A stretch of DNA of 43,857 bases. It comes from Clostridia bacterium (lineage in GTDB: Bacteria > Bacillota > Clostridia > Oscillospirales > CAG-272). The notes under the pieces are model-generated. The model worked only from the letters and a program-made list of their open reading frames with translations, did not search any database and was not told where the DNA came from. The position numbers were made by a program, and so were the translations under genes. Each line of letters opens with the position of its first letter. The first letter of the stretch is position 1. Of the stretch, positions 19,743 through 37,656 are shown piece by piece. The stretch spans positions 1-43,857 of the forward strand of contig JAFTIJ010000178.1 of NCBI GenBank assembly GCA_017456965.1. Direction: 5' to 3'.

Positions 19743-20690
19743 ATGGGAAAGAAAATTACGGTTATCGGCGCAGGCAGCGTTGGCGCTACCATTGCGTACA
19801 CACTTTCCGTCAAAGGCATCGCTGATGAGATCGTCATGATCGACATCAACGAAAACAAGGTGCTCGGTGAGGCACTTGACATTCGACAGGGTCTTCCTTT
19901 CTGCAGAGCAACCTCCGTATATGCGGGCGGTTACGCGGAAGCGGTCAACTCCGACATTGTCGTTATCACCTCCGGTCTGCCGAGAAAGCCCGGCCAGACC
20001 CGTCTTGAGCTCGCACAGGCAAACGTGGATATTCTGAAGAGCATTATGCCCAGAATCACCAAGTACGCTCCCGATGCGATCTATATCCTGGTAGCAAACC
20101 CCGTCGATATCCTTACCTATACCTTCGTAAAGTATTCCGGTATTCCGGAAAATCATATCTTCGGCTCGGGTACGATGCTCGACTCCGTCCGTCTGCGCTC
20201 CAGACTTGCAGAGTACTACGGCATCGACTCCACTTACATCAACGCATACATGCTCGGTGAGCACGGCGACTCCATGTTCTTGCCCTGGTCTCTTGTTAAG
20301 ATCAACGGCAACGGCGTCCGTCTCCACGAGGAGGTCAAGGCAAGAGAGGGCGGTCTTCTCCCCGAGATCGACAAGGATGCGATCGAGAAATACGTCCGCA
20401 CCTCCGGCGGCAGAGTTATCGCGAGAAAGGGCGCAACCTTCTACGCGGTCTCCATGTCCGTGGCTCATATGTGTGAGTGCGTGCTCAACAACGTCGGCTG
20501 CGTTCTCCCCGTATCCGTCATGATGAACGGTGAGCATGGCGTCAGCGACGTATGTCTGAGTTACCCGACGATGATCAACAGCGACGGCGTTTTCGCTAAG
20601 GTCCCCACGCCTCTGACCGAGGAGGAGGAGGCCGCTCTGCGCAGTAGCGGCGACGCGCTCAAGGCCGTTATTTCCGGTCTTGCATTCTAA
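19743..20690 (+). CDS. mdh: LDH-family 2-hydroxyacid dehydrogenase, predicted malate dehydrogenase
   Basis: GAGSVG Rossmann motif. LDH-like NPVDILTY, GSGTMLDS.R.R and GEHGDS motifs. It reads SGLPRKPGQTR (Arg81, codon 19983-19985) where LDHs have Gln. Sits directly upstream of fumC. Confidence 0.65.
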   Translation: MGKKITVIGAGSVGATIAYTLSVKGIADEIVMIDINENKVLGEALDIRQGLPFCRATSVYAGGYAEAVNSDIVVITSGLPRKPGQTRLELAQANVDILKSIMPRITKYAPDAIYILVANPVDILTYTFVKYSGIPENHIFGSGTMLDSVRLRSRLAEYYGIDSTYINAYMLGEHGDSMFLPWSLVKINGNGVRLHEEVKAREGGLLPEIDKDAIEKYVRTSGGRVIARKGATFYAVSMSVAHMCECVLNNVGCVLPVSVMMNGEHGVSDVCLSYPTMINSDGVFAKVPTPLTEEEEAALRSSGDALKAVISGLAF

Positions 20691-20740: not shown

Positions 20741-22126
20741 ATGGAATATCGTGTGGAACATGATTCTATGGGCGAGGTCAAGGTGCCTGCGGACAAGCTC
20801 TGGGGCGCTCAGACCGAAAGAAGCCACGAGAATTTCAAAATCGGCGTCGGCATTGAAACGATGCCGCGCGAGATCACGCACGCCTTCGGCATCCTGAAAA
20901 AGGCGTGCGCCATCGCCAATCACTCGCTGAAGCCCGAGCGTATGACCGACGCAAAGCTTGCCGCTATTTCTGCGGCGTGCGACGAGGTCATCGCCGGTAC
21001 GCTCAACGAGCATTTTCCGCTCGTCGTATGGCAGACCGGCTCCGGTACGCAGTCCAACATGAACGCAAACGAGGTCATTGCCAGACGCGGCACCGAGATC
21101 GGCGGCGGAACGCTTGAGAAGGCGCTCCATCCCAACGACGATATCAACATGAGCCAGTCCTCCAACGACACCTTCCCGACGGCAATGCACATTGCCGCAG
21201 TCCTCGCCATCGAGGAGAAGGTCTTCCCCGCAGTTGACAAGCTGATCGCCACCTTCAAGCGCCTTGAGGCCGAGAACGAGGGCATCGTCAAGAGCGGCAG
21301 AACCCACCTTCAGGACGCAACGCCCATCAAGTTCTCTCAGGAGATCAGCGGCTGGCGCTCCTCTCTTGAGAAGGACAGAAAGATGCTGGAGATCGCACTT
21401 CCCGCGCTCTACGAGCTCGCACTCGGCGGCACCGCGGTCGGCACCGGTCTGAATGCACCCAAGGGCTTTGACACCAAGGTTGCCGAGGCCGTTGCAACGC
21501 TTACCGGCAAGCCCTTCGTCACCGCTCCCAACAAATTCCACGCCCTCACCTCCAAGGATGAGCTCGTATTCGCTCACGGCGCACTCAAGGCACTCGCCGC
21601 CGACATGATGAAGATCGCAAACGACGTCAGATGGCTGGCATCCGGCCCTCGCGACGGTCTTGGCGAGATCTTTATCCCCGAGAACGAGCCCGGCTCCTCC
21701 ATCATGCCCGGTAAGGTCAACCCCACCCAGTGTGAGGCTGTTACCATGGTAGCCGTTCAGGTTATGGGTAACGACGTGGCTGTCGGCATGGCGGCATCTC
21801 AGGGCAACTTTGAGCTCAACGTATTCATGCCCGTGTGCATCTACAACTTCCTCCAGTCCGCAAGACTGCTCGCGGAGTCCATCGTTTCCTTCAACGATAA
21901 CTGCGCCGTCGGCATTACCGCCAACAAGGAAAAGATGCATCACAACCTTTATAACTCTCTGATGCTCGTCACCGCTCTCAACCCCTACATCGGCTACGAG
22001 AATGCGGCAAAGACGGCAAAGAAAGCATACAAGGACAATATTTCCCTGAAAGAAGCCTGCGTTGCGCTCGGCTTCCTGACTGCTGAGAAATTTGACGAAG
22101 TATTCCACCCCGAAGAAATGGCATAA
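20741..22126 (+). CDS. fumC: class II fumarate hydratase
   Basis: [16 protein letters not shown] signature. N-terminus [28 protein letters not shown]. 461 aa. Confidence 0.95.
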
Positions 22127-22143: not shown

Positions 22144-22920
22144 ATGACCTTCAGCTATTATCCCGGTTGCACCCTCAAAACCAAGGCAAAGGAGCTCGAC
22201 GGCTACGCCAGAAGAAGCGCTGAGGCGCTCGGCATCACGCTCGACGAGCTTGCCGATTGGCAGTGCTGCGGTGGCGTTTACACCACGGCGAAGGACGAGA
22301 TCGCAACCAAGCTCTCCTCCGTACGTGCGCTGATGTCTGCGAAGAAAGAGGGTAACGCGCTCGTGACGCTTTGCTCTGCCTGCCACAACGTGATCAAGCA
22401 GACCAAGCACGAGCTCGACACAAACGACGATATGAACCTCAGAGCAAGCAACTACATGGGCTGCAATGCAAGAGAGGCTGCGGACACCGAGGTCATCCAT
22501 TACCTCGAAATGCTCCGTGACGTCGTCGGCTTTGACAAGATCAAGGAGAAAGTCGTCAATCCCCTGACGGGCAGAAAGATCGCGGCATATTACGGTTGCC
22601 TGCTCCTGCGCCCCGGAAAGACGATGCAGTTTGATAACCCCGAGAACCCCAAGATCATCGAGGACTTCATCCGCGCGATCGGTGCGACTCCCGTGATCTA
22701 CCCGATGAGAAACGAATGCTGCGGCGGCTACATCACCGTCAAGGATGCCGAGGCGGCAAAGAAGAACAGCACAGCCGTTCATGAGAGCGCGGCGGGCTTT
22801 GGTGCGGACTGCATCATCACCGCTTGCCCCCTGTGCCGTTACAACCTCATCAAGGCGGAGAGCCCGATCCCCGTCATCTATTTCACTGAACTTCTTGCCG
22901 AAGCACTCGGTGTAAAATAA
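22144..22920 (+). CDS. hdrB: heterodisulfide reductase subunit B-like protein (two CCG domains)
   Basis: YPGC...CCGG...CSAC and YYGC...CCGG...CPLC modules. Confidence 0.8.
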   Translation: MTFSYYPGCTLKTKAKELDGYARRSAEALGITLDELADWQCCGGVYTTAKDEIATKLSSVRALMSAKKEGNALVTLCSACHNVIKQTKHELDTNDDMNLRASNYMGCNAREAADTEVIHYLEMLRDVVGFDKIKEKVVNPLTGRKIAAYYGCLLLRPGKTMQFDNPENPKIIEDFIRAIGATPVIYPMRNECCGGYITVKDAEAAKKNSTAVHESAAGFGADCIITACPLCRYNLIKAESPIPVIYFTELLAEALGVK

Positions 22921-22932
22921 GGAGGCAGACAA

Positions 22933-23316
22933 ATGAACAATAATCTCAAAGAAGAAATCATCCGCACAAGCGGCGTCAACGTTCTCAAATGTATGAGATG
23001 CGGCAAGTGCTCCGGCACCTGTCCCTCCTACGGAGAAATGGAATATCATCCGCATCAGTTTGTATATATGGTAGAGAAGGGTGAGATCGACAAGCTCATG
23101 GATTCTCCCTCCATTTACAAATGTCTTTCCTGCTTTGCCTGCGTAGAACGCTGTCCTCGCGGCGTTGAGCCCGCAAAGATCGTCGAGGCGGTCCGTCTCG
23201 CCGCAACCCGCCGTCAGGGCGGTAATCACCTGACCGCAGAAGAGATCCCCTGCATCGTCGACGACGATACGCCGGGTCAGCTCCTCGTCAGCGCATTCCG
23301 TAAGTATAAGAAATAA
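22933..23316 (+). CDS. hdrC: heterodisulfide reductase subunit C-like 4Fe-4S dicluster protein
   Basis: CMRCGKCSGTCP and CLSCFACVERCP motifs. 127 aa, between the hdrB- and hdrA-like genes. Confidence 0.75.
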   Translation: MNNNLKEEIIRTSGVNVLKCMRCGKCSGTCPSYGEMEYHPHQFVYMVEKGEIDKLMDSPSIYKCLSCFACVERCPRGVEPAKIVEAVRLAATRRQGGNHLTAEEIPCIVDDDTPGQLLVSAFRKYKK

Positions 23317-23330
23317 GGAAGGGGAAAGAT

Positions 23331-25322
23331 ATGCAAAAGATTGGTGTTTTCGTGTGCCATTGCGGCACGAATATCGCCGGCACCGTTGATGTAAAGGCGG
23401 TTGCCGAGGCGCTCGGCAAAGAGCCCGGCGTCGTTTTCTCCGCCGAATATCCGTATATGTGTTCCGAGGCAGGTCAGAACCTGATCAAGAACGCGATCAA
23501 GGACTACGGACTGACCGGCATCGTTGTATGCTCCTGCTCGCCCCGTATGCACGAGGCTACGTTCCGCAAGACCGCGGCGGCTGCAGGACTCAACTCCTAC
23601 ATGGTTGAGATTGCAAATATCCGTGAGCAGTGCTCCTGGATCCACAAGGATATCAAGGTCGCTACCGAAAAGGCGATCGTCCTCGGACGCACCGCCATCG
23701 CGAAGGTTGCTCTCAACACTCCTCTTACCGCAAGCTCCAGCCCCGTTGTCAAGCGTGCGCTCGTCATCGGTGGCGGTATCGCAGGTATCCAGACCGCGCT
23801 TGATATCGCAGACGCGGGCTACGAGGTCGATATCGTAGAGAAGGAGCCCACCATCGGCGGCAAGATGGCTCAGATCGACAAGACGTTCCCGACCCTCGAC
23901 TGCGCGGCTTGTATCCTCACGCCGAAGATGGTTGACTGCGCTCAGAACGAAAAGATCCATATTTACTCCTACAGTGAGGTAGAGAGTGTCAAGGGCTTCG
24001 TCGGTAACTTCACCGTCTCCATCAAGAAGAAGGCGCGTTACGTTGACGAAACCAAGTGTACCGGCTGCGGTCTGTGTACCGAAAAGTGCCCGATGAAGAA
24101 GACCCCCAACCTCTTCAACCTCGGACTTGACAACCGCTCCGCGATCTACATTCCCTTTGCTCAGGCGATCCCGAAGGTTGCGACCATCGATGCCGACTAC
24201 TGTAACATGCTGAAAAACGGCAAGTGCGGTGTCTGCTCCAAGGTCTGTGCCGCAGGCGCGATCGACTACAAGCAGAAGGATCAGATCATCGAGGAGAAGT
24301 ACGGTGCCATCGTCGTTGCTACCGGCTTCAATCCCATCAAGCTTGACGGCTACGATGAGTTCGCTTACAACGAGAGCCCCGACGTCGTAACCTCCCTTGA
24401 GCTTGAGAGACTGATGAACGCCGCAGGTCCCAACGGCGGTACGCTCCTGCGTCCCTCCGACAAGACGCATCCCAAGACCATCGTATTCGTACAGTGCGTA
24501 GGCTCCCGTGATACCACCGATTGCGGCAAGCCATACTGCTCCAAGATCTGCTGTATGTATACCGCGAAGCACGCAATGCTCATCCGCGACAAGTATCCGG
24601 ATACCGAGGTATACGTATTCTACATCGACGTCCGTACGCCCGGTAAGAACTTCGACGAGTTCTATCGCCGTGCCGTTGAGGAATACGGCGTGCATTACAT
24701 CAAGGGCATGGTAGGCAAGGTTATGCCTCAGCCCGACGGCAAGCTCCTCGTCCGCGCCGCTGACCTGATCATGAACGAGCAGGTTATGATCAACGCAGAC
24801 ATGGTCGTCCTCGCCGCCGCAATCGAGCCCGACAAGACCGCAAGACCTCTTGCGACCATGCTGACCGCAAGCATGGATACCAACGACTTCTTCACGGAGG
24901 CACATCCCAAGCTCCGTCCCGTTGAGAGCCCCACCGCAGGTATCTTCCTCTCCGGTGTATGCCAGGGTCCGAAGGATATCCCCGAGACCGTTGCACAGGC
25001 AAGTGCCGCAGCAGCGAAGGTTATCGGCCTGCTTGCCAAGGATAAGCTCCTGAGCAACCCCTGCGTTGCACACTCCGATGAGAACCTGTGTAACGGCTGC
25101 TCCTCTTGTGAAAGAGTATGTCCCTACGGCGCGATTTCCTACGTGGATAAGGAATTCCGTATGCCCGACAGAACCACAAAGATTCGCCGCGTAGCGTCCG
25201 TCAATGCCGCCGTTTGCCAGGGCTGCGGTGCTTGTACCGTTGCTTGTCCCTCCGGCGCGATGGACCTCTCCGGCTTCTCCAATAAACAGATCATGGCGGA
25301 GGTAGATGCAATATGTCGATGA
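23331..25322 (+). CDS. hdrA: heterodisulfide reductase subunit A-like FAD/FeS protein
   Basis: VFVCHCGTNIAG N-terminus, VIGGGIAGIQTALDIA dinucleotide fold, internal CTGCGLCTEKCP motif, and C-terminal CNGCSSCERVCP / CQGCGACTVACP ferredoxin domain. 663 aa. Confidence 0.85.
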   Translation: MQKIGVFVCHCGTNIAGTVDVKAVAEALGKEPGVVFSAEYPYMCSEAGQNLIKNAIKDYGLTGIVVCSCSPRMHEATFRKTAAAAGLNSYMVEIANIREQCSWIHKDIKVATEKAIVLGRTAIAKVALNTPLTASSSPVVKRALVIGGGIAGIQTALDIADAGYEVDIVEKEPTIGGKMAQIDKTFPTLDCAACILTPKMVDCAQNEKIHIYSYSEVESVKGFVGNFTVSIKKKARYVDETKCTGCGLCTEKCPMKKTPNLFNLGLDNRSAIYIPFAQAIPKVATIDADYCNMLKNGKCGVCSKVCAAGAIDYKQKDQIIEEKYGAIVVATGFNPIKLDGYDEFAYNESPDVVTSLELERLMNAAGPNGGTLLRPSDKTHPKTIVFVQCVGSRDTTDCGKPYCSKICCMYTAKHAMLIRDKYPDTEVYVFYIDVRTPGKNFDEFYRRAVEEYGVHYIKGMVGKVMPQPDGKLLVRAADLIMNEQVMINADMVVLAAAIEPDKTARPLATMLTASMDTNDFFTEAHPKLRPVESPTAGIFLSGVCQGPKDIPETVAQASAAAAKVIGLLAKDKLLSNPCVAHSDENLCNGCSSCERVCPYGAISYVDKEFRMPDRTTKIRRVASVNAAVCQGCGACTVACPSGAMDLSGFSNKQIMAEVDAICR

Positions 25323-25747
25323 ATGAATTCAAACCCAAAATCGTGGCGTTCTGCTGCAACTGGTGCTCCTATGCGGGCGCCGACCTTGCAGGCACAAACC
25401 GTCTGAACTATCCCGCCGACGTCAAGATCATCCGCGTTCCTTGCTCCTGCCGTGTCAATCCTCTCTTCATCCTTCGTGCATTCCAGAGAGGCGCGGACGG
25501 CGTGATCCTGTGCGGATGCCATCCCGGCGACTGCCACTATACGACGGGTAACTACTATGCGAGACGCCGTATGACCCTGCTTTTCTCCATGCTCGATTAC
25601 CTCGGCATCGAGAAGGAGCGTACCCGTGTAGAATGGGTTTCCGCCGCAGAAGGCGCGAAATTCGCTACTGTAATGAATGACTTTGTTAAGACCGTTACCG
25701 AACTCGGTGAAAACAAGAGACTGGAGGACCTCAGATGCAAGAAATGA
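25313..25747 (+). CDS. mvhD: MvhD/FlxD-like (methyl-viologen-reducing hydrogenase delta subunit family) protein
   Basis: KIVAFCCNWCSYAGADLAG...RVPCSCRV...GADGVILCGCHPGDCHY. Overlaps the hdrA stop by 10 nt. Confidence 0.8.
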   Translation: MSMNEFKPKIVAFCCNWCSYAGADLAGTNRLNYPADVKIIRVPCSCRVNPLFILRAFQRGADGVILCGCHPGDCHYTTGNYYARRRMTLLFSMLDYLGIEKERTRVEWVSAAEGAKFATVMNDFVKTVTELGENKRLEDLRCKK

Positions 25748-26706
25748 TGAAGAAAAGAGCGAAAGAGCTCCTCGCTTCCGGTGAAGTAACCAGAGTCATC
25801 GGTTGGAAAAAGAATGAATTTGACTACGATATCACTCCCGCCGTATTCACGAGTGCGGAGGAGATCGACCGCGATTTCATCTATGACGATTTCTGCGGTG
25901 TCAACCTCTCCAAGTTTACCTTCCAGCATCAGAAGAACGATACCAAGACGCTCGTTTTCCTGAAGCCCTGCGATTCCTACAGCATGACCCAGCTCATTAC
26001 CGAGCACCGTGTTGACAGAAACGCACTGTATATCATCGGCGTACCGTCCTACGGCAAGATCGACGTTGAGAAGATCAAGGCTGACGGTGTGACCGGTATC
26101 CTCTCCATCACCTCCGAGGGCGGCGACGTACACGTTCACACCCTTTACGGTGACAAGACCTACGCAAAGTACGAGGTCACCTCCGAGCGCTGTCTCAACT
26201 GCAAGAGCAAGATGCACCCCACCTACGACGAGCTCATCGGCTTTGAGGGCGAGGTCATGGAGACTGAGCGCTTTGACGAGGTTGCAAAGCTTGAGGCGAT
26301 GACCCCCGAGGAGCGCTTCGAGTTCTGGCGCGGCGAGCTCTCCCGTTGCATCCGTTGCAACGCCTGCCGCAACGCTTGTCCCGCATGTACCTGTGAGACC
26401 TGTATTTTCGATAACAACGATTCCGGCGTTGCGCAGAAGGCGGCCGCTGACTCGTTTGAAGAGAATATGTTCCATATCATCCGCGCATTCCACGTTGCAG
26501 GCCGTTGCACCGACTGCGGCGAATGCTCCAGAGTATGTCCTCAGCACATCCCGCTCCACCTTCTGAACCGTAAGTTTATCAGCGATATCAATAAATTCTA
26601 CGGTGACTATCAGGCAGGTGCCGAGATTGGTCAGAGAGCACCTCTCGTCAACTTCACCAAGGAAGACGTGGAGCCCGATATCGTGGCAAAAGGAGGTAAA
26701 GCATAA
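25735..26706 (+). CDS. iron-sulfur electron-transfer protein (HydB/AsrA/FlxB-C-like)
   Basis: CIRCNACRNACPACTC and CTDCGECSRVCP cluster motifs. Overlaps the mvhD stop. The family name is from memory. Confidence 0.6.
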   Translation: MQEMMKKRAKELLASGEVTRVIGWKKNEFDYDITPAVFTSAEEIDRDFIYDDFCGVNLSKFTFQHQKNDTKTLVFLKPCDSYSMTQLITEHRVDRNALYIIGVPSYGKIDVEKIKADGVTGILSITSEGGDVHVHTLYGDKTYAKYEVTSERCLNCKSKMHPTYDELIGFEGEVMETERFDEVAKLEAMTPEERFEFWRGELSRCIRCNACRNACPACTCETCIFDNNDSGVAQKAAADSFEENMFHIIRAFHVAGRCTDCGECSRVCPQHIPLHLLNRKFISDINKFYGDYQAGAEIGQRAPLVNFTKEDVEPDIVAKGGKA

Positions 26707-27737
26707 TGCTTAAGATCCTTCGTGAAAATCTCGATCAGCTTTTCGCGCTGATCGCTGAGAAAGAGACCCTTTACATCCCCACCGATGCAACCAGCGGTAT
26801 CGCACAGTTCAAGAAGTGGGAAGCAGGCATGAAAATGTCTGAGAAGCTCAAGACCTCCCGCAGTGCAAAGGATTTCTTCTTCCCGCAGACTGAGGATCTC
26901 GTATCCTTCAAGACGAACGGCAGAAAGATTGATATTATCGACCCCCGCACCGAGACCGAGGACTTCGTGATCTTCGGCGTACGTGCGTGCGATGCCAAGA
27001 GCTTCACCATCCTCGATCGCGTATTCCTCGTCGATCCCGTAGATACCTATTACAAGAATCGCCGTGAGCACGGCACCGTCGTTACTCTTGCTTGCTCCAA
27101 GCCCGCTGAGACCTGCTTCTGCACCACCTTCGGCATCGATCCCACTGAGCCCGCAGGCGACGTCAGCGCATGGCTCACCGAGGATGCACTCTATATCAAG
27201 GCCGTAACCGAGAAGGGAACTGCCTTCGTTGAGAGTGTCAAGGCGATCGCAGAGGAGAGCGACGAGACCGCAGTCGAGGCACAGAAGGCTGCAACCAAGC
27301 AGATCCTCGACAAGCTCCCGATCAAGAACCTCAAGACCGAGGCCTTCGGCGGCGGTAAGACCGAGACCTACTTCAAGTCCGAGGAGTGGGCAAAGCTCTC
27401 CGAGGCTTGCCTTGGATGCGGCACCTGCACCTTCGTATGCCCCACCTGTCAGTGCTACGATATCCGCGACTTCGACACGGGACACGGCATCGACCGTTTC
27501 CGTTGCTGGGACAGCTGTATGTACTCCGACTTTACCAAGATGGCACACGGCAACCCCAGACTCTCCCAGAAGGAACGCTTCCGTCAGCGCTTCATGCATA
27601 AGCTCGTTTATTTCCCCGAGAACAATGAGGGTATCTTCGGCTGCGTCGGCTGCGGCAGATGCGTAGAGAAGTGCCCGATCTCGATGAATATCGTCAAAGT
27701 CATGAGAACACTTGCAAAGGAGGAAGAAGGAAAATGA
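26706..27737 (+). CDS. iron-sulfur electron-transfer protein (sulfhydrogenase beta / AsrA / FlxB-C-like)
   Basis: CLGCGTCTFVCPTCQC and CVGCGRCVEKCP motifs. TAATG overlap with the upstream gene. Confidence 0.6.
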   Translation: MLKILRENLDQLFALIAEKETLYIPTDATSGIAQFKKWEAGMKMSEKLKTSRSAKDFFFPQTEDLVSFKTNGRKIDIIDPRTETEDFVIFGVRACDAKSFTILDRVFLVDPVDTYYKNRREHGTVVTLACSKPAETCFCTTFGIDPTEPAGDVSAWLTEDALYIKAVTEKGTAFVESVKAIAEESDETAVEAQKAATKQILDKLPIKNLKTEAFGGGKTETYFKSEEWAKLSEACLGCGTCTFVCPTCQCYDIRDFDTGHGIDRFRCWDSCMYSDFTKMAHGNPRLSQKERFRQRFMHKLVYFPENNEGIFGCVGCGRCVEKCPISMNIVKVMRTLAKEEEGK

Positions 27738-28567
27738 ACAACGAAACCCTTATTCCCGTAGTTGGCGTCATCACCGAAGTAAAGCTTGATACCCCTGATA
27801 TCAAAAACTTCCGTGTCGTCGGCAGAGACGGTAAGAAGCCCTTCGCTCACAAGCCCGGTCAGTGCGCAATGGTTTCTCTGCCCGGTATCGGTGAAGCAAT
27901 GTTTTCCATCACCTCTTCTCCCACAAACGAAGAGTACATGGAATTTGAAATCAAGAAGTGCGGTTGTCTGACCACTTGGTTCCATATGCTTGAGCCCGGT
28001 CAGGAGATCACCGTACGCGGACCTTACGGAAATGCATTCCCCGTAGACGACGCTTTCGTCGGCAAGGATCTTCTGATCATCGCCGGCGGTGTCGGTCTCG
28101 CCCCCGTCCGCTCCGTCATCAACTATTGCCGTCACTACAGAGACCGTTACGGCAAGATCGATATCGTTTACGGCTCCCGCTCCAAGGAGGACCTTGCCTT
28201 CTATCAGGAGATCGTTGACGAGTGGATGAGCCCCGATGAGAAGGACGTCAACGTCCACCTCACCATCGACCGCGAGCAGGATAACTGGGACGGTCACGTC
28301 GGCTTTGTTCCCAACTACGTCAAGGAGCTGAATTTCTCCACCGACAAGACCGTTATCATGTGCGGACCTCCGATCATGATCAAGTTCACGCTTGCAGGTC
28401 TGAAGGAGTGCGGCTTTGACGAGACGCAGATCTTCACGACGATGGAGCTCAAGATGAAGTGCGGTATCGGCAAATGCGGCAGATGCAACATCGGCTCCAA
28501 GTACGTTTGCAAGGACGGCCCCGTATTCCGTATGGATGAGCTTTCCGAGCTTCCGGATGAATATTAA
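27734..28567 (+). CDS. FAD/NAD(P)H-binding oxidoreductase with C-terminal 2Fe-2S (HydG/AsrB/PyrK/FlxA-like)
   Basis: Ferredoxin-reductase-type layout (GQCAMVSLPG, LLIIAGGVGLAPV) ending in CGIGKCGRCNIG..YVCKDGP. ATGA overlap with the upstream gene. Confidence 0.7.
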   Translation: MNNETLIPVVGVITEVKLDTPDIKNFRVVGRDGKKPFAHKPGQCAMVSLPGIGEAMFSITSSPTNEEYMEFEIKKCGCLTTWFHMLEPGQEITVRGPYGNAFPVDDAFVGKDLLIIAGGVGLAPVRSVINYCRHYRDRYGKIDIVYGSRSKEDLAFYQEIVDEWMSPDEKDVNVHLTIDREQDNWDGHVGFVPNYVKELNFSTDKTVIMCGPPIMIKFTLAGLKECGFDETQIFTTMELKMKCGIGKCGRCNIGSKYVCKDGPVFRMDELSELPDEY

Positions 28568-28590
28568 TCTTGAAACGGAGGTCATTTGAC

Positions 28591-29265
28591 ATGGAAAATA
28601 TGGTGAATGTCTATCTTTTTGGTAAGAAGTATGAGGTCCCGTCCAATCTTACGATCATGGGCGCGATGGAATACGCAGGCTATCAGCTCGTCCGCGGTTG
28701 CGGATGCCGTAACGGCTTCTGCGGCGCTTGCGCTACGATCTACAGAATCAAAGGTCAGAATGAGCTGAAGTCCTGCCTCGCTTGCCAGACCAAGGTAGAG
28801 GACAATATGTACGTCGCAACCCTTCCTTTCTTCCCGCTGGAAAAGAAGGTTTACGATATTGAAAAGATCAAACCCACGGAACAGATCATGATGCAGCTTT
28901 ACCCCGAGATCTACAGCTGCATCGGATGCAATGCCTGCACCAAGGCGTGCACGCAGGAGCTCAACGTTATGCAGTACATCGCTTACGCTCAGAGAGGCGA
29001 GTACGAGAAGTGCGCAGAGGAATCCTTCGACTGCGTTATGTGCGGCGTTTGCTCCTCCCGTTGCCCCGCAGGTATCTCTCATCCCCAGGTCGCTCTCCTT
29101 GCAAGACGCCTGAACGGCAAGTATCTTGCACCGAAGTCGGCACATCTCGAAAATCGCGTACAGGAGATCAAGGACGGTACCTTCCGGGAGCTCCTTGAGG
29201 CGCTGATGCAGAAGCCGATTTCCGAAATGAAAGAGCTCTACAATAACAGAGAGATCGAGAAGTAA
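28591..29265 (+). CDS. frdB: succinate dehydrogenase/fumarate reductase iron-sulfur subunit-like protein
   Basis: CRNGFCGAC...CLAC (2Fe-2S-like), then CIGCNACTKAC and CVMCGVCSSRCP. Start is set at ATG 28591 after ACGGAGG. Confidence 0.7.
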   Translation: MENMVNVYLFGKKYEVPSNLTIMGAMEYAGYQLVRGCGCRNGFCGACATIYRIKGQNELKSCLACQTKVEDNMYVATLPFFPLEKKVYDIEKIKPTEQIMMQLYPEIYSCIGCNACTKACTQELNVMQYIAYAQRGEYEKCAEESFDCVMCGVCSSRCPAGISHPQVALLARRLNGKYLAPKSAHLENRVQEIKDGTFRELLEALMQKPISEMKELYNNREIEK

Positions 29266-29278
29266 GGAGGAACGACTG

Positions 29279-30892
29279 ATGTATAATGAGAAAATGCTGG
29301 AGTCCATGCGTAAGGTTGCCGCAAACCGCGAAGCCAATGCAGAGCTTGAGCCCCGCAGAATGACCGCGGACGAAAAGGACGCGCTCCTCGCTGAATTCCA
29401 TCCCGACTACAAGCAGAACGAGTTTGCAATTCTCTCCATTGGTGAAAACAAGGGCGAGAAGGTTCCCACCGAGCTTTGCGAGCTCCTTCAGGCGCATAGC
29501 CGTATTTCTGCCGCAGACGTTGACCTTACCAAGGTTGACTATGAGACCGATGTTCTGATCATCGGCGGCGGCGGTGCAGGCGCATCTGCCGCGATCGAGG
29601 CGGATGAGGCAGGCGCAAAGGCAATGATCGTCACCAAGCTCCGCATCGGTGACGCAAATACCATGATGGCTGAGGGTGGCATCCAGGCTGCCGACAAGCC
29701 CAACGATTCCCCCGCGATCCACTATCTCGACGCTTTCGGCGGCGGACACTTCGCCGCAAAGCCCGAGCTGCTTTATAAGCTCGTAAATGAAGCACCCGAG
29801 GCGATCCAGTGGCTCAACAATCTCGGTGTCGAATTCGATAAGACCGAGGACGGCACGATGGTCACGACCCACGGTGGCGGTACCTCCCGCAAGAGAATGC
29901 ACGCCGCAAAGGACTACTCCGGTGCGGAGATCATGAGAACGCTTCGCGATGAGGTTCTCAATCGCGGTATTCCCGTGATCGACTTTACCGCCGCAGTTGA
30001 GCTCATCCTCGATGAGAACGGCAACTGCGCAGGCGCAGTCCTCATGAATATGGAGACCAAGGAGCTCCTCGTTGCCAAGGCTAAGACCGTTATCCTTGCT
30101 ACGGGTGGCGCGGGCCGTCTCCACTATCAGGGCTTCCCGACCTCCAACCACTACGGTGCAACCGCGGACGGTCTCGTTCTCGGTTACCGTGTCGGCGCGA
30201 AGCTCCTCTACGCAGATACCCTCCAGTATCACCCCACGGGTGCGGCATATCCCGAGCAGATCTTCGGTGCGCTCGTTACCGAGAAGGTACGTTCCATCGG
30301 TGCGAAGCTCGTCAACGCGGACGGTGAGGTCTTCATGCATCCGCTGGAGACCCGTGACGTTTCCGCCGCCTCCATCATCCGTGAGTGCAACGCAAGAGGC
30401 AAGGGCATCGAGACCTCCGACGGTGTCGGTGTATGGCTCGATACGCCTATGATCGAGCTCAAGAACGGCGAGGGCACGATCGAGAAGAGAATCCCCGCGA
30501 TGCTCCGTATGTTCGGTAAGTACGGCATCGACATCCGCAAGGAGCCGATCCTCGTATATCCCACGCTCCACTATCAGAACGGCGGTCTCGATATCAACGC
30601 AGACTGCATGACCAAGGTAGAGAATCTCTACGCCGCAGGCGAGGTCGTCGGCGGTATCCACGGTCGCAACCGTCTGATGGGCAACTCTCTGCTTGATATC
30701 ATCGTATTCGGCAGAGACGCAGGTCGCGCAGCAGCAGAGAAGGCAAAGGATGTTACCGTCGGTGCACTCACCCTCGATCACATGGCAGCGTTCGACGCAG
30801 AGAGAGCGGCTGCAGGTCTTGAGACTGAAGCGATCTCTCCCAAGCTTCTCCCCACCTATACCCACGGCAACCCCAAGTTTGAAGCGAAATAA
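29279..30892 (+). CDS. frdA: fumarate reductase/succinate dehydrogenase flavoprotein-like subunit (soluble type)
   Basis: DVLIIGGGGAGASAA FAD fold, LQYHPTG, GRNRLMGNSLLDIIVFGR. It reads GDANTMMAEGG where covalent-FAD enzymes carry the SHT motif. 537 aa. Confidence 0.75.
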   Translation: MYNEKMLESMRKVAANREANAELEPRRMTADEKDALLAEFHPDYKQNEFAILSIGENKGEKVPTELCELLQAHSRISAADVDLTKVDYETDVLIIGGGGAGASAAIEADEAGAKAMIVTKLRIGDANTMMAEGGIQAADKPNDSPAIHYLDAFGGGHFAAKPELLYKLVNEAPEAIQWLNNLGVEFDKTEDGTMVTTHGGGTSRKRMHAAKDYSGAEIMRTLRDEVLNRGIPVIDFTAAVELILDENGNCAGAVLMNMETKELLVAKAKTVILATGGAGRLHYQGFPTSNHYGATADGLVLGYRVGAKLLYADTLQYHPTGAAYPEQIFGALVTEKVRSIGAKLVNADGEVFMHPLETRDVSAASIIRECNARGKGIETSDGVGVWLDTPMIELKNGEGTIEKRIPAMLRMFGKYGIDIRKEPILVYPTLHYQNGGLDINADCMTKVENLYAAGEVVGGIHGRNRLMGNSLLDIIVFGRDAGRAAAEKAKDVTVGALTLDHMAAFDAERAAAGLETEAISPKLLPTYTHGNPKFEAK

Positions 30893-31071: not shown

Positions 31072-32865
31072 ATGAACAGATTTACCAAAAACCCCACCGT
31101 TCTCGCTTGGATCGAGGAGATGAAAGCTCTCCTCACTCCCGACAACGTCGTTGTCATTGACGGCAGCGAAGAGCAGCTCGAAGCACTCCGTGCAGAGGCT
31201 GTTGCAACCGGCGAAATGATCAAGCTCAACCAAGAGAAGCTTCCCGGCTGCTACTACCACAGAACCAAGCCCAATGACGTTGCCCGCGTTGAGGACAGAA
31301 CCTTTATCTGCTCCAGAGAAAAGGAAAACGCAGGTCCCACCAACAACTGGTGCGACCCCAAGGAAATGTACGCTAAGCTCTACGATATCGCTCGCGGTAC
31401 CTACAAGGGCAGAACTATGTACATCATTCCTTTCTCCATGGGGCCGATCGGCTCTCCTCTCGCAAAAGCAGGTATCGAAGTTACCGACTCTATCTACGTT
31501 GTCCTCAACATGGCTATCATGACCCGTGTCGGTGCTGAGGTCCTCACCGTTCTCGGTGACTCCAACGACTGGGTAAGAGGTCTCCATGCAAAGTGCGATG
31601 TTGATCCCGAGAAGAGATACATCTGCCAGTTCCCCGAAGACAACACCATCATCTCCGTTAACTCCGCTTACGGCGGCAACGTACTTCTCGGTAAGAAGTG
31701 CTTTGCTCTCCGTATCGCTTCCTACCAGGGCTGGAAGGAAGGCTGGATGGCTGAGCATATGCTCATCCTCGGCGTTGAGAATCCTCAGGGTGAGGTTAAG
31801 TACGTTGCCGCCGCATTCCCCTCTGCTTGCGGTAAGACCAACCTCGCAATGATGATTCCTCCCGCATACCTCCGTGAAAAGGGCTACAAGGTATGGACTG
31901 TCGGCGACGATATCGCTTGGATGCGTATCGGCGAGGACGGCAGACTCTACGCGATCAACCCTGAGAACGGCTTCTTCGGCGTAGCTCCCGGTACCAACGA
32001 GCACTCCAACTACAACGCGCTCGCTTCTACCAAGAAGAACACCATCTTCACCAACGTTGCGATCAACCTCGATGACAACACCGTTTGGTGGGAAGGTCTC
32101 GACAAGAATCCTCCTCAGAACGCTCAGGAGTGGAAGGGCAATCCTTGGAATCCCTCTATGTTCGTAAAGGCTGACAAGACCACCTATGCCGCTCACCCCA
32201 ACTCCCGTTTCACTGCTCCCGCAGTAAACTGCCCCTGCATCTCCTCCGAGTTTGACAAGGGCGCAGGCGTTCCGATCTCCGCTATCATCTTCGGCGGCCG
32301 CCGTGCTAAGTGCGCTCCGCTGGTATATCAGTCCAAGGACTGGAAGAACGGCGTATTCGTAGGCTCCTCCATGGCTTCCGAAACCACCGCTGCAGCTGCA
32401 GGTGCAGTCGGCGTCGTTCGTCGTGACCCCATGGCTATGCTTCCTTTCTGTGGCTACCACATGGGCGACTATTTCGCACACTGGCTCGCAATGGGCGAGA
32501 AGCTCGGCGACAAGGCTCCTAAGATCTTCAACGTTAACTGGTTCCGTACCGACGACGAAGGCAACTTCATCTGGCCCGGCTTCGGCGACAACATGAGAGT
32601 CCTCAACTGGATCCTCGACCGTTGCGAAGGCAAGGTTGGCGCTGTTGAGACCGCAATCGGTTACGTTCCCAATCCCGAAGACATCGACCTCACCGACCTC
32701 GAAGGCTTCGACATCGAGGTTCTCAAGTCCATCCTCGACGTTGACAACGACGTATGGGCTAAGGAAGCTGCTGAGATCGAAGAGCACTACAAGAAGTTTG
32801 GCGACAAGCTTCCCGCAGAGCTCAGAAATCAGCTCGAAACCCTCAAGGCTGCTGTTTGCAAATAA
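31072..32865 (+). CDS. pck: phosphoenolpyruvate carboxykinase (GTP)
   Basis: FPSACGKTNLAMM kinase-1a motif, a length near 600 aa, and overall similarity to GTP-type PEPCK. Confidence 0.9.
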   Translation: MNRFTKNPTVLAWIEEMKALLTPDNVVVIDGSEEQLEALRAEAVATGEMIKLNQEKLPGCYYHRTKPNDVARVEDRTFICSREKENAGPTNNWCDPKEMYAKLYDIARGTYKGRTMYIIPFSMGPIGSPLAKAGIEVTDSIYVVLNMAIMTRVGAEVLTVLGDSNDWVRGLHAKCDVDPEKRYICQFPEDNTIISVNSAYGGNVLLGKKCFALRIASYQGWKEGWMAEHMLILGVENPQGEVKYVAAAFPSACGKTNLAMMIPPAYLREKGYKVWTVGDDIAWMRIGEDGRLYAINPENGFFGVAPGTNEHSNYNALASTKKNTIFTNVAINLDDNTVWWEGLDKNPPQNAQEWKGNPWNPSMFVKADKTTYAAHPNSRFTAPAVNCPCISSEFDKGAGVPISAIIFGGRRAKCAPLVYQSKDWKNGVFVGSSMASETTAAAAGAVGVVRRDPMAMLPFCGYHMGDYFAHWLAMGEKLGDKAPKIFNVNWFRTDDEGNFIWPGFGDNMRVLNWILDRCEGKVGAVETAIGYVPNPEDIDLTDLEGFDIEVLKSILDVDNDVWAKEAAEIEEHYKKFGDKLPAELRNQLETLKAAVCK

Positions 32866-32910: not shown

Positions 32911-32959
32911 AGCCACCTAAGTAATTTTGAAAAGCCGCGCTTGCGGCATGGAGAAATCT

Positions 32960-33595
32960 ATGGCTCATCACGAAATATCCGTTGCGACGATCCAAAGATT
33001 GCCACTTTATCTCGACTACCTCAAATCCGTTGAGAAGGATATAGAGTTTATTTCCGCCACCACCATCGCGTTCTCGCTCGGTCTCGGAGAGGTACAGGTA
33101 CGCAAGGACCTTGCGTCGGTATCCTCCTCGGGAAAGCCGAAGATCGGGTACAACATCCATGAGCTGATCTCGCAGCTTGAAGATGCATTGGGTTATCATC
33201 ATGTGAATAACGCCATCATCGTCGGCGCGGGCAAGCTCGGATGCGCGCTTCTGGGGTATGAGGGGTTTTGTCGTTCGGGACTGGAGATCCTTGCGGCGTT
33301 TGATTCCGATCAGACGAAGGCAGGGCAGTACGAATCCGGAAAACCCATCTACACCGTGGATGCGTTACCCGACTTTTGCAGAGACAAAGAGGTGCGTATC
33401 GGTATCATTACCGTTCCCGGCGAACACGCGCAGAAGGTGTGTGATCTGCTGGTTGAGGCGGGGATCCTTGCCATCTGGAACTTTGCACCCGTCAGATTGG
33501 ATATTCCCAAAAACATCATCGTAAAAAATGAAAACATGGCTTCCTCTCTCGCCGTCTTGTCCACCAGTCTGGCGAAGAAGTTAAGAGAAGCCTGA
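32960..33595 (+). CDS. rex: redox-sensing transcriptional repressor Rex
   Basis: ATIQRLPLYLDYL HTH region, IVGAGKLGCALL Rossmann motif, and C-terminal ILAIWNFAP. Start is ATG 32960 after GGAGA; the alternative start is 32948. Confidence 0.85.
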   Translation: MAHHEISVATIQRLPLYLDYLKSVEKDIEFISATTIAFSLGLGEVQVRKDLASVSSSGKPKIGYNIHELISQLEDALGYHHVNNAIIVGAGKLGCALLGYEGFCRSGLEILAAFDSDQTKAGQYESGKPIYTVDALPDFCRDKEVRIGIITVPGEHAQKVCDLLVEAGILAIWNFAPVRLDIPKNIIVKNENMASSLAVLSTSLAKKLREA

Positions 33596-37637: not shown

Positions 37638-37656
37638 AGATCGAAAGGGGACCCGT

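Follow-up and report, generated by a model that had tools for sequence, protein, structure and literature searches.

A candidate electron-bifurcating, Hdr/Flx-linked fumarate reductase in a PEP-to-succinate gene cluster of a Clostridia bacterium

In the window analyzed here (43,857 nucleotides of a gut Clostridia bacterium, contig JAFTIJ010000178.1), nine tightly packed plus-strand genes at 22144-30892 encoded, in order, hdrB, hdrC, hdrA, flxD, flxC, flxB, flxA, a FrdB-like and a FrdA-like protein. Together with flanking mdh, fumC, GTP-dependent PEP carboxykinase and Rex genes, this block is a complete PEP-to-succinate branch. The explanation that we consider fairly probable as a whole is that mdh-fumC-hdrBCA-flxDCBA-frdBA, here followed by pckA and rex, forms a single pathway operon for the cytoplasmic conversion of PEP and CO2 to succinate, with the FrdA-like flavoprotein as the putative catalytic subunit for fumarate reduction. 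Judged from sequence, the operon would encode a bifurcating NADH:fumarate/ferredoxin enzyme, a reading that we hold with moderate confidence and that is well supported by genomics because of the conserved residues, synteny, anchor absence and C4 context. The genes were as follows.

19743..20690, plus strand: LDH-like malate dehydrogenase (oxaloacetate to malate; Pfam Ldh_1_N, Ldh_1_C)
20741..22126, plus strand: class II fumarate hydratase FumC (malate to fumarate; TIGR00979, 713 bits, cutoff 665)
22144..22920, plus strand: HdrB-like subunit (two Pfam CCG domains)
22933..23316, plus strand: HdrC-like subunit with two [4Fe-4S] motifs (two CxxCxxCxxxC)
23331..25322, plus strand: HdrA, 663 aa (NCBIfam HdrA2, 791 bits, below the 1100-bit cutoff)
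25313..25747, plus strand: FlxD/MvhD-like [2Fe-2S] connector subunit (Pfam FlpD, 189 bits, full length)
25735..26706, plus strand: FlxC-like iron-sulfur protein (generic Fer4 matches only)
26706..27737, plus strand: FlxB-like iron-sulfur protein, HydB/ShyB/AsrA type (Pfam Fer4_22, 107 bits)
27734..28567, plus strand: FlxA-like NAD(P)H-binding flavoprotein (Pfam NAD_binding_1, FAD_binding_6, DHODB_Fe-S_bind)
28591..29265, plus strand: FrdB-like iron-sulfur subunit (Pfam Fer2_4, Fer4_7; distant)
29279..30892, plus strand: FrdA-like flavoprotein, 537 aa (Pfam FAD_binding_2, 249 bits)
31072..32865, plus strand: GTP-dependent PEP carboxykinase (PEP + CO2 to oxaloacetate; NF003253, 866 bits, above cutoff)
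32927..33595, plus strand: redox-sensing repressor Rex (NADH/NAD+ sensor; NF003994, 269 bits, above cutoff)

The nine ORFs were separated by gaps of 12 nt (22920/22933), 14 nt (23316/23331), 23 nt (28567/28591) and 13 nt (29265/29279) or overlapped by 10 nt (25313/25322), 13 nt (25735/25747), 1 nt (26706) and 4 nt (27734/27737), bearing out the co-directional layout with short gaps and four overlaps given in the preliminary description. A GGAGG ribosome-binding site preceded both the flxA-like start at 27734 (as AGGAGG) and the FrdB-like start at 28591; in the program-made ORF list, they had been set at 27659 and 28570. Across all genes from 18.2 to 33.6 kb, the mean Kyte-Doolittle hydropathy of every 19-residue window was at most 1.63, showing that a membrane anchor is absent there, as had been claimed for FrdC/D-type anchors and TM-rich ORFs.

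Both CCG motifs of the HdrB-like subunit were complete (C9, C41, C42, C77, C80; C152, C192, C193, C228, C231), and these cysteines presumably ligate two non-cubane [4Fe-4S] clusters. Its best NCBIfam match was SdhE (MFR anchor, 149 bits), ahead of HdrB (125 bits), both below cutoffs; it matched PDB 8rvv_B at 103 bits. The SdhABE 8-methylmenaquinol:fumarate reductase has SdhE as its CCG subunit, which directly contacts SdhB. The HdrC-like subunit scored 70 bits against TIGR03290 (HdrC; cutoff 160). HdrA had a FAD-binding thioredoxin-reductase-like core and ferredoxin-type cluster motifs at the N-terminus, in an insertion and at the C-terminus; residues 3-661 matched PDB 5odc_A at 693 bits, so that it is full length relative to this structurally characterized bifurcating methanogen HdrA and carries a putative bifurcating flavin site. 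The HdrB-, HdrC-, HdrA- and MvhD-like identities first assigned to these genes were thus upheld by the domain and cysteine-motif matches.

The FlxC-like protein contained two CxxCxxCxxxC motifs and additional cysteines. By D. vulgaris nomenclature the order of this gene set is hdrBCA-flxDCBA, and the position of the gene at 25735-26706 corresponds to that of flxC in the reversed D. vulgaris order (as reported by Ramos et al. 2015). The FlxB-like protein matched ShyB (174 bits), HydB (159 bits) and AsrA (155 bits), all below the NCBIfam cutoffs. Of the two genes initially read as HydB/AsrA-type polyferredoxins, 26706-27737 therefore kept this assignment; for 25735-26706 it was not demonstrated because there were Fer4 matches only. 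The FlxA-like protein, presumed to be the NADH entry point, scored 227 bits against PRK08345, 200 against HydG and 197 against AsrB and had a C-terminal [2Fe-2S] motif, in agreement with its earlier description as a HydG/AsrB/FlxA-like module.

The FrdB-like subunit had a 2Fe-2S motif (C39x4C44x2C47x14C62) and two complete CxxCxxCxxxC(P) motifs; by Pfam and cysteine motifs, it had no CCG domain and no recognizable 3Fe-4S motif. It matched TfrB (residues 19-93) and dhsB in NCBIfam, and residues 38-160 matched PDB SdhB chains (E = 3.5e-5). A natural FrdB-FrdA fusion was also found (P0123). The FrdA-like flavoprotein was extended at its N-terminus by about 88 aa that are specific to the family and was truncated at its C-terminus, where PF02910 (C-terminal domain) gave no match in the Pfam search. 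Its NCBIfam scores, all below curated cutoffs, were highest for TfrA (355 bits), followed by nadB (282 bits) and sdhA_frdA (280 bits). The domain and chain matches agreed with the FrdB-like and FrdA-like identities originally proposed. H318, T334, E335, R338, R359, H431 and R465 aligned with E. coli FrdA H232, T244, E245, R248, R287, H355 and R390; every fumarate-binding and catalytic residue checked was thus kept. GDANTMMAEGG aligned with RSHTVAAEGG of E. coli FrdA, placing Asn127 at the position of His44, the covalent-FAD residue of the E. coli enzyme, whereas HPTG was kept, as had been noted before; the FAD is accordingly predicted to be non-covalent. Glu121 of NadB, typical of L-aspartate oxidase, was Gly in the FrdA-like protein. 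The top Foldseek match of its low-confidence model (pLDDT 65) was E. coli FrdA.

In all 58 species-level genomes of gut Clostridia that offered 7.3 kb or more of upstream sequence, the nine-gene block was intact and colinear, showing that the arrangement is not due to chance and answering the neighborhood survey that had been called for of frdAB beside hdrABC-mvhD across Clostridia. In 52 of 55 genomes, fumC lay immediately 5' of hdrB, and mdh was kept upstream of fumC in 44 of 55. Independently rearranged loci (L099/L101, L132, L133, L136, L144, L163) still placed frdBA beside hdrCB(A)-mvhD, with an Mvh-type [NiFe] hydrogenase as the donor module and no Flx in L101, and the hdrC-hdrB-frdB-frdA adjacency recurred in otherwise rearranged loci. 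Methanogen TfrB matched the FrdB-like (TfrB 19-93), HdrC-like (131-220) and HdrB-like (264-486) proteins in series, showing that it unites these three modules in one chain. Relatives of frdBA in other lineages adjoined sucCD, aconitase/IDH, class I fumarase and malic enzyme, or 2-oxoacid:ferredoxin oxidoreductase; the context was TCA or C4-dicarboxylate in every relative with neighbors examined. Among the well-flanked distant frdBA loci, roughly half (L086, L091, L094, L098, L103, L104, L111, L152) showed no Hdr/Flx genes within 10 kb, indicating that FrdBA can use other donors, e.g., the NuoF-like NADH module that alone accompanies it in L086.

In the proposed mechanism, anchor-less FrdBA would catalyze the last step with a FlxABCD-HdrABC-type complex, not quinol, as the donor. 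NADH would be oxidized by FlxA (FAD/2Fe-2S), and electrons would pass through the iron-sulfur clusters of FlxB, FlxC and FlxD to the HdrA flavin, where the pair would be bifurcated. The downhill electron would travel via HdrC, the HdrB CCG clusters and the FrdB clusters to FrdA-FAD and fumarate (E0' ~ +30 mV), and the uphill electron via the HdrA ferredoxin domains to ferredoxin, giving overall 2 NADH + fumarate + Fd(ox) -> 2 NAD+ + succinate + Fd(red, 2 e-). Known Hdr complexes use heterodisulfide or DsrC; here, fumarate would take that role. We infer that the operon proteins form a physical supercomplex in which HdrB passes electrons directly to FrdB, that this complex bifurcates and that it is specific for NADH. 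NADH to fumarate yields about -58 kJ/mol (PMC13147460, Table 1), which we estimate suffices to pay for ferredoxin reduction. The window contained no ferredoxin, Rnf or hydrogenase genes as an outlet for reduced ferredoxin, which counts against the proposed mechanism, as do the distant frdBA loci free of Hdr/Flx genes, the low-confidence FrdA model and the lack of a Rex operator consensus upstream of the operon.

The bifurcating NADH:fumarate/ferredoxin reading is not new, and at least two earlier proposals of such a complex exist. Pseudoclostridium thermosuccinogenes was described as carrying the same operon in 2019/2020 (PMC7282089, citing a 2019 preprint), and tubeworm symbionts as carrying a tfrAB/flx-hdr cluster in 2019 (PMC6315080). 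A 2026 survey still called the complex "suggested" (PMC13147460). The P. thermosuccinogenes operon, of the same layout, was transcribed as one unit and about 4-fold upregulated under CO2 limitation, and succinate formation was abolished by excess H2 (PMC7282089), which fits ferredoxin coupling.

It is rather unlikely that Flx and Hdr merely wire NADH to FrdBA as a soluble, non-bifurcating NADH:fumarate oxidoreductase, leaving ferredoxin unreduced. To our knowledge, bifurcation has been shown for only some HdrA-containing complexes and never for, e.g., Qmo or the Moorella MetFV-Hdr complex. The L086 locus, and the soluble five-subunit NADH-dependent fumarate reductase of Hydrogenobacter thermophilus, for which bifurcation is unreported (Miura 2008, via PMC13147460), also fit a simple wire. 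However, seven additional subunits, including MvhD and a full-length HdrA that retains its two ferredoxin domains, would be extravagant for this task, and the -58 kJ/mol would be lost (PMC13147460). The exchange of the donor module, Flx or Mvh hydrogenase, while the HdrABC-MvhD-FrdBA core stays constant resembles the pattern of known bifurcating Hdr complexes, and the inhibition of succinate formation by H2 in P. thermosuccinogenes (PMC7282089) likewise argues for bifurcation.

Two enzymes linked by a diffusible thiol/disulfide are unlikely as well; Flx-Hdr would reduce a disulfide (and ferredoxin) with NADH, and FrdBA would be a Tfr-like thiol:fumarate reductase. TfrA was the top match of the flavoprotein, and the disulfide-reducing site of methanogen Hdr is built from CCG motifs such as the two complete ones of the HdrB-like subunit. 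Lacking a CCG domain, however, the FrdB-like subunit is without the thiol-oxidation site found in TfrB; the operon has no DsrC-like or thiol-carrier gene, and synthesis of CoM or CoB is not known from Clostridia. In P. thermosuccinogenes, Flx-Hdr was said to transfer electrons "to ferredoxin (and thiols)" (PMC7282089), but the recurring hdrC-hdrB-frdB-frdA adjacency suggests direct contact.

Operation mainly in reverse, as a confurcating succinate dehydrogenase oxidizing succinate and reduced ferredoxin to form NADH, is very unlikely, although it would solve uphill succinate oxidation in syntrophic or oxidative metabolism. Flavin-based bifurcation is in principle reversible, succinate oxidation is not strictly barred by non-covalent FAD, and the aconitase/IDH or sucCD genes beside some distant relatives serve both TCA directions. 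However, non-covalent FAD is typical of fumarate-reducing enzymes, and PEP carboxykinase, MDH, fumarase and NADH-sensing Rex are typical neighbors in a reductive, NADH-consuming fermentative branch. Among the carriers, Ruminococcus flavefaciens (L024, L055), a classical succinate producer, excretes succinate. Succinate is also excreted by P. thermosuccinogenes, the carrier known from the literature (PMC7282089). The idea that the FrdA-like protein is an L-aspartate oxidase or another FAD_binding_2 enzyme, with Hdr/Flx adjacent for another reaction, was largely refuted and is highly improbable: the nadB score is close to that of sdhA_frdA, no NCBIfam score reaches its cutoff and the source of one homologue, P0089, labels it "L-aspartate oxidase", but NadB Glu121 is replaced by Gly, nadA and nadC are not among the neighbors, fumarase precedes the block, all relatives with neighbors examined have a TCA or C4 context, and L-aspartate oxidase ranked 46th behind FrdA/SdhA in the low-confidence Foldseek comparison. 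The kept catalytic residues and the mdh, fumC and pckA neighbors thus sustained the initial choice of a fumarate/succinate enzyme.

Three further elements flanked the genes.

18242..19237, plus strand: LysR-type transcriptional regulator (Pfam HTH_1, 63 bits; TTG start uncertain)
19457..19485, plus strand: sigma-70-like promoter candidate (TTTACA-17-TAAAAT, extended TG; 10/12 matches in a consensus scan)
33617..33668, plus strand: intrinsic terminator-like hairpin (AAGAGCAAG...CTTGCTCTT), then a T-run (read from sequence)

The malate dehydrogenase gene had L-LDH as its best NCBIfam match; in its specificity loop (SGLPRKPGQTR), Arg occupies the Gln/Arg102 discriminator position. No terminator-like site was found between frdA and the PEP carboxykinase gene, an adjacency common only to the window and L006, and no Rex operator consensus was found upstream of the operon; a Rex gene was present in 16 of 80 related genome loci. 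The hairpin at 33617..33668 is probably the end of the transcription unit; the consensus scan flagged its inner hairpin, on the minus strand. The candidate promoter was followed by a leader of about 250 nt, and the segment containing it (19408-19497) was 82% identical in L006. L076 and L082 likewise had LysR-like genes upstream of the operon.

Nine genes were arranged on the forward strand between 22144 and 30892 of the window, within the following gene set (coordinates, strand, identity).

Upstream of mdh, +, LysR-type regulator
19743-20690, +, LDH-like dehydrogenase (mdh), specificity loop SGLPRKPGQTR
20741-22126, +, class II fumarase FumC (TIGR00979, 713 bits, above cutoff)
22144-22920, +, HdrB, two Pfam CCG domains with cysteines C9/41/42/77/80 and C152/192/193/228/231
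22933-23316, +, HdrC, two CxxCxxCxxxC motifs (2 x [4Fe-4S])
23331-25322, +, HdrA, 663 aa, thioredoxin-reductase-like FAD domain and multiple [4Fe-4S] motifs
25313-25747, +, FlxD (MvhD/FlpD), Pfam FlpD, 189 bits
25735-26706, +, generic polyferredoxin in the FlxC position (Fer4)
26706-27737, +, FlxB-like Fe-S protein (Fer4_22, HydB/ShyB/AsrA-like)
27734-28567, +, FlxA-like, HydG/AsrB-like NAD(P)H flavoprotein (NAD_binding_1 and DHODB_Fe-S_bind; C-terminal 2Fe-2S motif)
28591-29265, +, FrdB-like Fe-S subunit
29279-30892, +, FrdA-like flavoprotein
31072-32865, +, GTP-dependent PEP carboxykinase, pckA (866 bits, above cutoff)
32927-33595, +, Rex, downstream of pckA

After two starts were corrected to the ATGs at 27734 and 28591, both behind GGAGG-type ribosome-binding sites, the spacings in the nine-gene block were 12, 14, -10, -13, -1, -4, 23 and 13 nt. 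The ORF positions and corrected spacings bore out the tight co-directional packing claimed in the preliminary description, and profile searches (Pfam, NCBIfam) agreed overall with its subunit identities. HdrA, a two-CCG HdrB, HdrC and contiguous genes for Flx A-D and HdrABC were all present by domain content. In Desulfovibrio nomenclature the order hdrB-hdrC-hdrA-flxD-flxC-flxB-flxA was the exact reverse of flxABCD-hdrABC. HdrA scored 791 bits against NCBIfam HdrA2, below the 1100-bit cutoff, and 693 bits against PDB 5odc_A over residues 3-661; by this alignment it is full length relative to that structurally characterised bifurcating enzyme. A hydropathy scan of the genes between 18.2 and 33.6 kb detected no membrane anchor of the FrdC/D or SdhC/D type. 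The maximum 19-residue mean hydropathy was at most 1.63 for every gene in this region, and the region was fully taken up by assigned genes with no ORF space left over, indicating that the fumarate reductase is anchor-less, as had been described at first.

The best-supported model for the observed gene content, motifs, conserved residues and synteny was a cytoplasmic bifurcating NADH:fumarate/ferredoxin complex, and we infer the formation of the complex, the contact of HdrB with FrdB, the bifurcation itself and the donor specificity. In this model NADH would enter the complex at FlxA, and its electrons would pass via FlxB, FlxC and FlxD to the HdrA flavin. One electron would then move through HdrC, HdrB and FrdB to the FAD of FrdA and on to fumarate, and the other would move through the ferredoxin domains of HdrA to ferredoxin. 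The reduction of fumarate by NADH releases about 58 kJ/mol (PMC13147460, Table 1), and the reduction of ferredoxin by NADH was estimated to cost about 25-39 kJ per electron pair, so that the coupled reaction would stay exergonic. No biochemical demonstration of fumarate/ferredoxin coupling in any member was found in the literature searched. The main rival explanation is an NADH:fumarate reductase that does not bifurcate, and a second is a complex that operates in reverse, by confurcation. The bifurcation interpretation agreed with every test available, and it is the one supported here.

A substrate other than fumarate is a further rival, on which the 537-aa flavoprotein (FAD_binding_2; exact record MBQ9748820.1, 'MAG: FAD-binding protein [Clostridia bacterium]') bears directly. 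Its best curated model was TfrA (NF004900), with 355 bits against a cutoff of 718; the nadB model (TIGR00551) gave 282 bits (cutoff 453), and the sdhA/frdA match was also at about 280 bits. When the protein was aligned to E. coli FrdA and NadB, both from NC_000913.3, the FrdA residues H232, T244, E245, R248, R287, H355 and R390 corresponded to H318, T334, E335, R338, R359, H431 and R465. The missing covalent-FAD histidine noted in the preliminary description was confirmed: the position of FrdA His44, which carries the 8-alpha-N3-histidyl FAD in complex II, was Asn127, invariant across the aligned subfamily. The grouping with L-aspartate oxidase that had been named there as a danger to the proposal was checked, and this role, or another FAD_binding_2 role, was rejected on active-site residues and gene context (NadB Glu121 replaced by Gly, nadB score below cutoff, C4-pathway genes as neighbours). 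The nearest solved structure by sequence was the SdhA of M. smegmatis Sdh1. An AlphaFold2 model built on a shallow alignment (30 sequences, 82-94% identical) reached a pLDDT of 65 and a pTM of 0.70, with active-site loops below 50. Foldseek searches with this low-confidence model placed E. coli FrdA and other FrdA/SdhA proteins at the top (TM about 0.5) and L-aspartate oxidase first at rank 46, a ranking that lends weak support to a predicted FrdA identity.

The membrane-bound enzymes E. coli FrdABCD (PDB 1kf6) and M. smegmatis Sdh1 (PDB 7d6v) share with the window the flavoprotein fold, the catalytic residues and the Cx4Cx2CxnC 2Fe-2S motif. Unlike them, the window has no FrdC/D and no covalent-FAD histidine. 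The flavoprotein also gave no match to the C-terminal domain PF02910; the chain ended about 60 aa past the FAD domain and lacked both the helical domain found at the C-terminus and the RKESRG motif within it. At the other end it carried a conserved extension of about 88 aa (motif HPDY...G.N.GE.VP.EL), again unlike complex II. The FrdB-like protein (224 aa), which showed a distant resemblance to FrdB, had the 2Fe-2S pattern C39x4C44x2C47x14C62 of the SdhB/FrdB type and two complete CxxCxxCxxxC(P) motifs, that is, two full four-cysteine [4Fe-4S] motifs, whereas complex II has one 4Fe-4S and one 3Fe-4S cluster beside the 2Fe-2S cluster.

No CCG domain was found in the FrdB-like protein by Pfam or in a map of its cysteine motifs. 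A thiol shuttle between Flx-Hdr and FrdBA is therefore disfavoured. HdrB matched methanogen HdrB structures at about 100 bits, and its best NCBIfam match was SdhE, the CCG subunit of the SdhABE 8-methylmenaquinol:fumarate reductase. Segments 19-93, 131-220 and 264-486 of methanogen TfrB matched the FrdB-like, HdrC-like and HdrB-like proteins in turn, so that TfrB can be read as three such modules fused into one chain, beside an FrdA-type flavoprotein. The thiol:fumarate reductase TfrAB of Methanothermobacter (Heim et al. 1998, as presented in PMC6315080) resembles the window system in being soluble and anchor-less, with TfrA as the top curated model for the flavoprotein. It differs in that TfrB joins an FrdB-like module and two CCG domains in one chain; in the window these modules lie in three genes, with the CCG domains on HdrB. 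HdrA, MvhD and Flx are present in the window as well, and the TfrA score falls far below the cutoff. Clostridia are not expected to have CoM-SH and CoB-SH, the donors of TfrAB. A natural fusion was found in the homologous protein P0123 (727 aa; from an NCBI-derived contig of 7.7 kb), in which the FrdA-like flavoprotein carries the FrdB-like protein at its N-terminus; this counts as Rosetta-stone evidence for an interaction of the two window proteins.

The flanking genes placed the block in C4 metabolism. The best match of the dehydrogenase at 19743-20690 was L-LDH (TIGR01771, 324 bits, above the cutoff of 304), and it carried Arg at the Gln/Arg102 specificity position, a discriminator that separates LDH from MDH. 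By this rule and by the malate/fumarate operon setting it was read as a putative malate dehydrogenase; an automatic annotation would probably call it LDH in error. PEPCK, MDH, fumarase and FrdBA together cover every reductive step between PEP and succinate. A promoter-like site lay ahead of mdh (19457-19485), no terminator-like site was seen between frdA and pckA in a sequence scan, and a strong hairpin with a T-run followed rex (about 33617-33668). A search upstream of the operon for the Rex operator TTGTGAA-N6-TTCACAA gave no match, and a single match with three mismatches elsewhere was at chance level, so that a Rex site ahead of the operon was dropped. The roughly 250-nt leader of mdh (19486-19742) folded somewhat better than shuffled sequences (z = -2.5) and contained a terminator-like hairpin with a T-run (19606-19624), which was not kept in the closest genome, L006. 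An Rfam gathering search of the whole window gave 0 matches, and a riboswitch or other known RNA in the leader was likewise dropped.

A gene-neighbourhood survey, an idea already raised in the preliminary description, was run on species-representative genomes. At least 591 relatives were confirmed, and the best 80 of these (74-91% identity) were examined; nearly all carried gut or rumen Clostridia labels. Of the 58 loci whose upstream sequence reached 7.3 kb or more, every one had the nine genes complete and colinear. Within the same best 80 of at least 591 loci, fumC lay directly upstream of the block in 52 of 55, and mdh and fumC were both present in 44 of 55. Three of the 80, labelled Treponema sp., Bacteroidaceae and Bacteroides uniformis (L011, L058, L084), carried the Clostridia-type operon in full order at 74-82% FrdA identity; mis-binned MAG contigs seem likelier here than horizontal transfer. 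Homologues at 82-95% identity came from gut MAGs and from isolates including Solibaculum mannosilyticum and Phocea massiliensis. In Solibaculum the entire mdh-fumC-hdrBCA-flxDCBA-frdBA cluster was present. There, the region beyond frdA (L001:11658-13375 and the equivalents in L002 and L003) held a conserved ORF of 96 aa without a Pfam match and, in the place of pckA-rex, a divergent transporter of the Na_H_antiporter family (PF03553); this transporter may export a C4-dicarboxylate or succinate.

The hypothesis of an Hdr/Flx-linked bifurcating fumarate reductase has been published before and is not new. The 'succinate operon' of Pseudoclostridium thermosuccinogenes (CDQ83_RS03365-03315) consists of a fumarate hydratase, a seven-gene Flx-Hdr set (CDQ83_RS03360-30), fumarate reductase (RS03325-20) and a hypothetical protein suggested to be a succinate transporter (PMC7282089, 2020, through which the preprint of Koendjbiharie & van Kranenburg 2019 on this operon, 10.20944/preprints201912.0288.v1, is cited). 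The window has the same layout, matched by description and not by sequence, with a fumarase, seven Flx/Hdr genes and two frd genes co-directional. The proposed role, NADH-dependent fumarate reduction coupled to ferredoxin reduction, is also the same, and both organisms are Clostridia with a GTP-PEPCK route to succinate. Unlike that operon, the window adds mdh upstream and pckA-rex downstream, and its host is an uncultured gut Clostridia MAG. For P. thermosuccinogenes a CRISPRi tool is available (PMC9044749).

The same coupling was proposed for tfrAB among flxABCD-hdrABC and korABCD in tubeworm symbionts (Ca. Endoriftia) and Thioflavicoccus mobilis (PMC6315080, 2019; PMC11636981, 2024). There too, an anchor-less AB-type fumarate reductase occurs with Flx-Hdr, the symbiont genes being co-located and co-expressed, and a bifurcating complex was proposed to feed fumarate and ferredoxin. 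However, these organisms are Gammaproteobacteria with autotrophic rTCA CO2 fixation and an embedded 2-oxoglutarate:ferredoxin oxidoreductase, the gene order differs, and the window pathway is a fermentative one from PEP to succinate. All seven subunit types of the FlxABCD-HdrABC NADH dehydrogenase/heterodisulfide reductase of Desulfovibrio vulgaris (Ramos et al. 2015, as presented in PMC7282089) were found in the window, in exactly reversed order. The high-potential acceptor proposed in D. vulgaris is the DsrC disulfide, in ethanol metabolism; by contrast, no DsrC-like gene was found among the scanned ORFs of the window, which has two appended fumarate reductase genes and C4-pathway flanks. 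The MvhADG-HdrABC of methanogens (PDB 5odc, 8rvu), an H2-dependent bifurcating heterodisulfide/ferredoxin reductase, shares HdrA, HdrB and MvhD with the window, but the window donor is the NADH-type Flx module and the proposed acceptor is fumarate via FrdBA, not CoM-S-S-CoB at HdrB. The soluble FrdABCDE of Hydrogenobacter thermophilus (Miura et al. 2008, as described in PMC13147460) is likewise a cytoplasmic enzyme of several subunits that depends on NADH, and its A subunit is a homologue of FrdA/SdhA; it is set apart by its five subunits, with HdrA/MvhD and ferredoxin coupling unreported in that description. A genome survey of April 2026 still words the Hdr-linked complex as 'it has been suggested' (PMC13147460). 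To this the present analysis adds the MDH/FumC/PEPCK/Rex context in this organism, an operon strictly conserved in at least 58 species of gut Clostridia, residue-level evidence for fumarate specificity, and a modular picture in which the donor is Flx or an Mvh-type hydrogenase in Hdr-linked loci and NuoF-like in one locus without Hdr.

This modular picture came from a metagenome scan seeded with the distant relative P0126, of a gammaproteobacterial type, in which frdBA adjoined Hdr genes in several independent arrangements: frdBA-hdrCBA-mvhD (loci L099 and L101), hdrCBA-mvhD-frdBA (L144, L163), hdrCB-frdBA-hdrA-mvhD (L132) and clusters with several hdrA copies (L110, L124, L134). At L101:9248-18222 (metagenome contig Ga0208039_1000450), frdB-frdA-hdrC-hdrB-hdrA-mvhD was followed by the small and large subunits of a [NiFe] hydrogenase (mvhG, mvhA) and a HycI protease, with no Flx, an arrangement resembling MvhADG-HdrABC. 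A 2-oxoacid:ferredoxin oxidoreductase lay divergently upstream of this cluster and was also adjacent in L163, which makes both loci analogous to the symbiont cluster. L101 thus resembles an Hdr-linked fumarate reductase driven by H2, in surroundings like those of a reductive TCA cycle. Roughly half of the well-flanked distant loci had no Hdr or Flx gene nearby, and the neighbours of four of them were scanned. At L086:9339-15006 frdBA was followed by a NuoF-like FMN/NADH subunit and sucCD, at L094 it lay between aconitase and IDH on one side and sucC on the other, and at L111 it stood after a class I fumarase and malic enzyme and before a CoA transferase. At L103 no C4-related gene was seen among the scanned neighbours, a TonB-dependent receptor and a radical SAM protein. 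In the contexts examined, the FrdA subfamily is a soluble fumarate/succinate enzyme for which HdrCB(A)-MvhD is a recurrent but not the sole possible partner, and the donor modules are exchangeable. A sister branch of the FrdA subfamily (the clusters of P0126 and P0133/P0286) at 41-48% identity came from marine Gammaproteobacteria/Thiotrichales MAGs and a record named Prochlorococcus sp. MIT 1201.

We put the chances slightly above even that the nine proteins form a single cytoplasmic supercomplex representing a new functional class of HdrABC, a bifurcating NADH:fumarate/ferredoxin oxidoreductase whose high-potential acceptor would be fumarate, reached through FrdBA docked on HdrCB, in place of a disulfide. 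The same broad proposal, at the same odds as a whole, makes this enzyme the main step of succinate formation and energy conservation in hundreds of gut Clostridia species that are independent of quinones, among them succinate producers of the Ruminococcus flavefaciens type, and one form of a modular 'Hdr-dependent fumarate reductase' family whose donor is Flx (NADH) or Mvh hydrogenase (H2) and whose ferredoxin feeds 2-oxoglutarate synthase of the reductive TCA cycle in autotrophs. If the complex bifurcates, fumarate reduction would conserve energy with no need of quinones, cytochromes or a membrane-bound enzyme; the energy would be recovered via reduced ferredoxin, with Rnf or hydrogenases as the next step. 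A substrate with a carbon-carbon double bond would join the short list of high-potential acceptors of HdrABC, and many 'orphan' bacterial Flx-Hdr clusters would gain a physiological acceptor. The invariance of the operon in at least 58 species-level genomes of Clostridia from animal and human guts suggests that it is more than a curiosity of one thermophile. Its breadth, with a relative in at least 591 genomic stretches of the species-representative collection, makes it relevant to the fluxes of succinate, propionate precursors and H2 in gut and rumen ecosystems. Since cultured carriers such as Solibaculum mannosilyticum and Yeguia hominis NSJ-40 exist, and MAGs assigned to the cultivable Ruminococcus flavefaciens also carry the operon, the hypothesis is directly testable.

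Elsewhere in the window, an 869-aa ORF with no Pfam match (33776-36385) lay just upstream of an ECF-type sigma factor (36419-36970), after which came two further ORFs without a Pfam match, of 224 aa and 856 aa (36419-37637, 37549-40119); the genes of 33776-40119 may be a cell-surface protein set under sigma/anti-sigma control. A second ECF sigma factor (2801-3361) was followed by four overlapping ORFs without Pfam matches. Beyond these lay a cluster of MacB/FtsX-type ABC transporter genes, at 6006-7487, 7554-9392, 9389-10054 (ATPase), 11214-12137 and 12335-14077. The genes at 832-2628, 14183-16354 (-), 16441-17910 (-) and 41369-43306 (-) encode a GH123 glycoside hydrolase, a BspA-type leucine-rich-repeat surface protein, a flotillin/SPFH protein and a DAHP synthase with prephenate dehydrogenase, and are unrelated to the Hdr/Flx-fumarate reductase finding.
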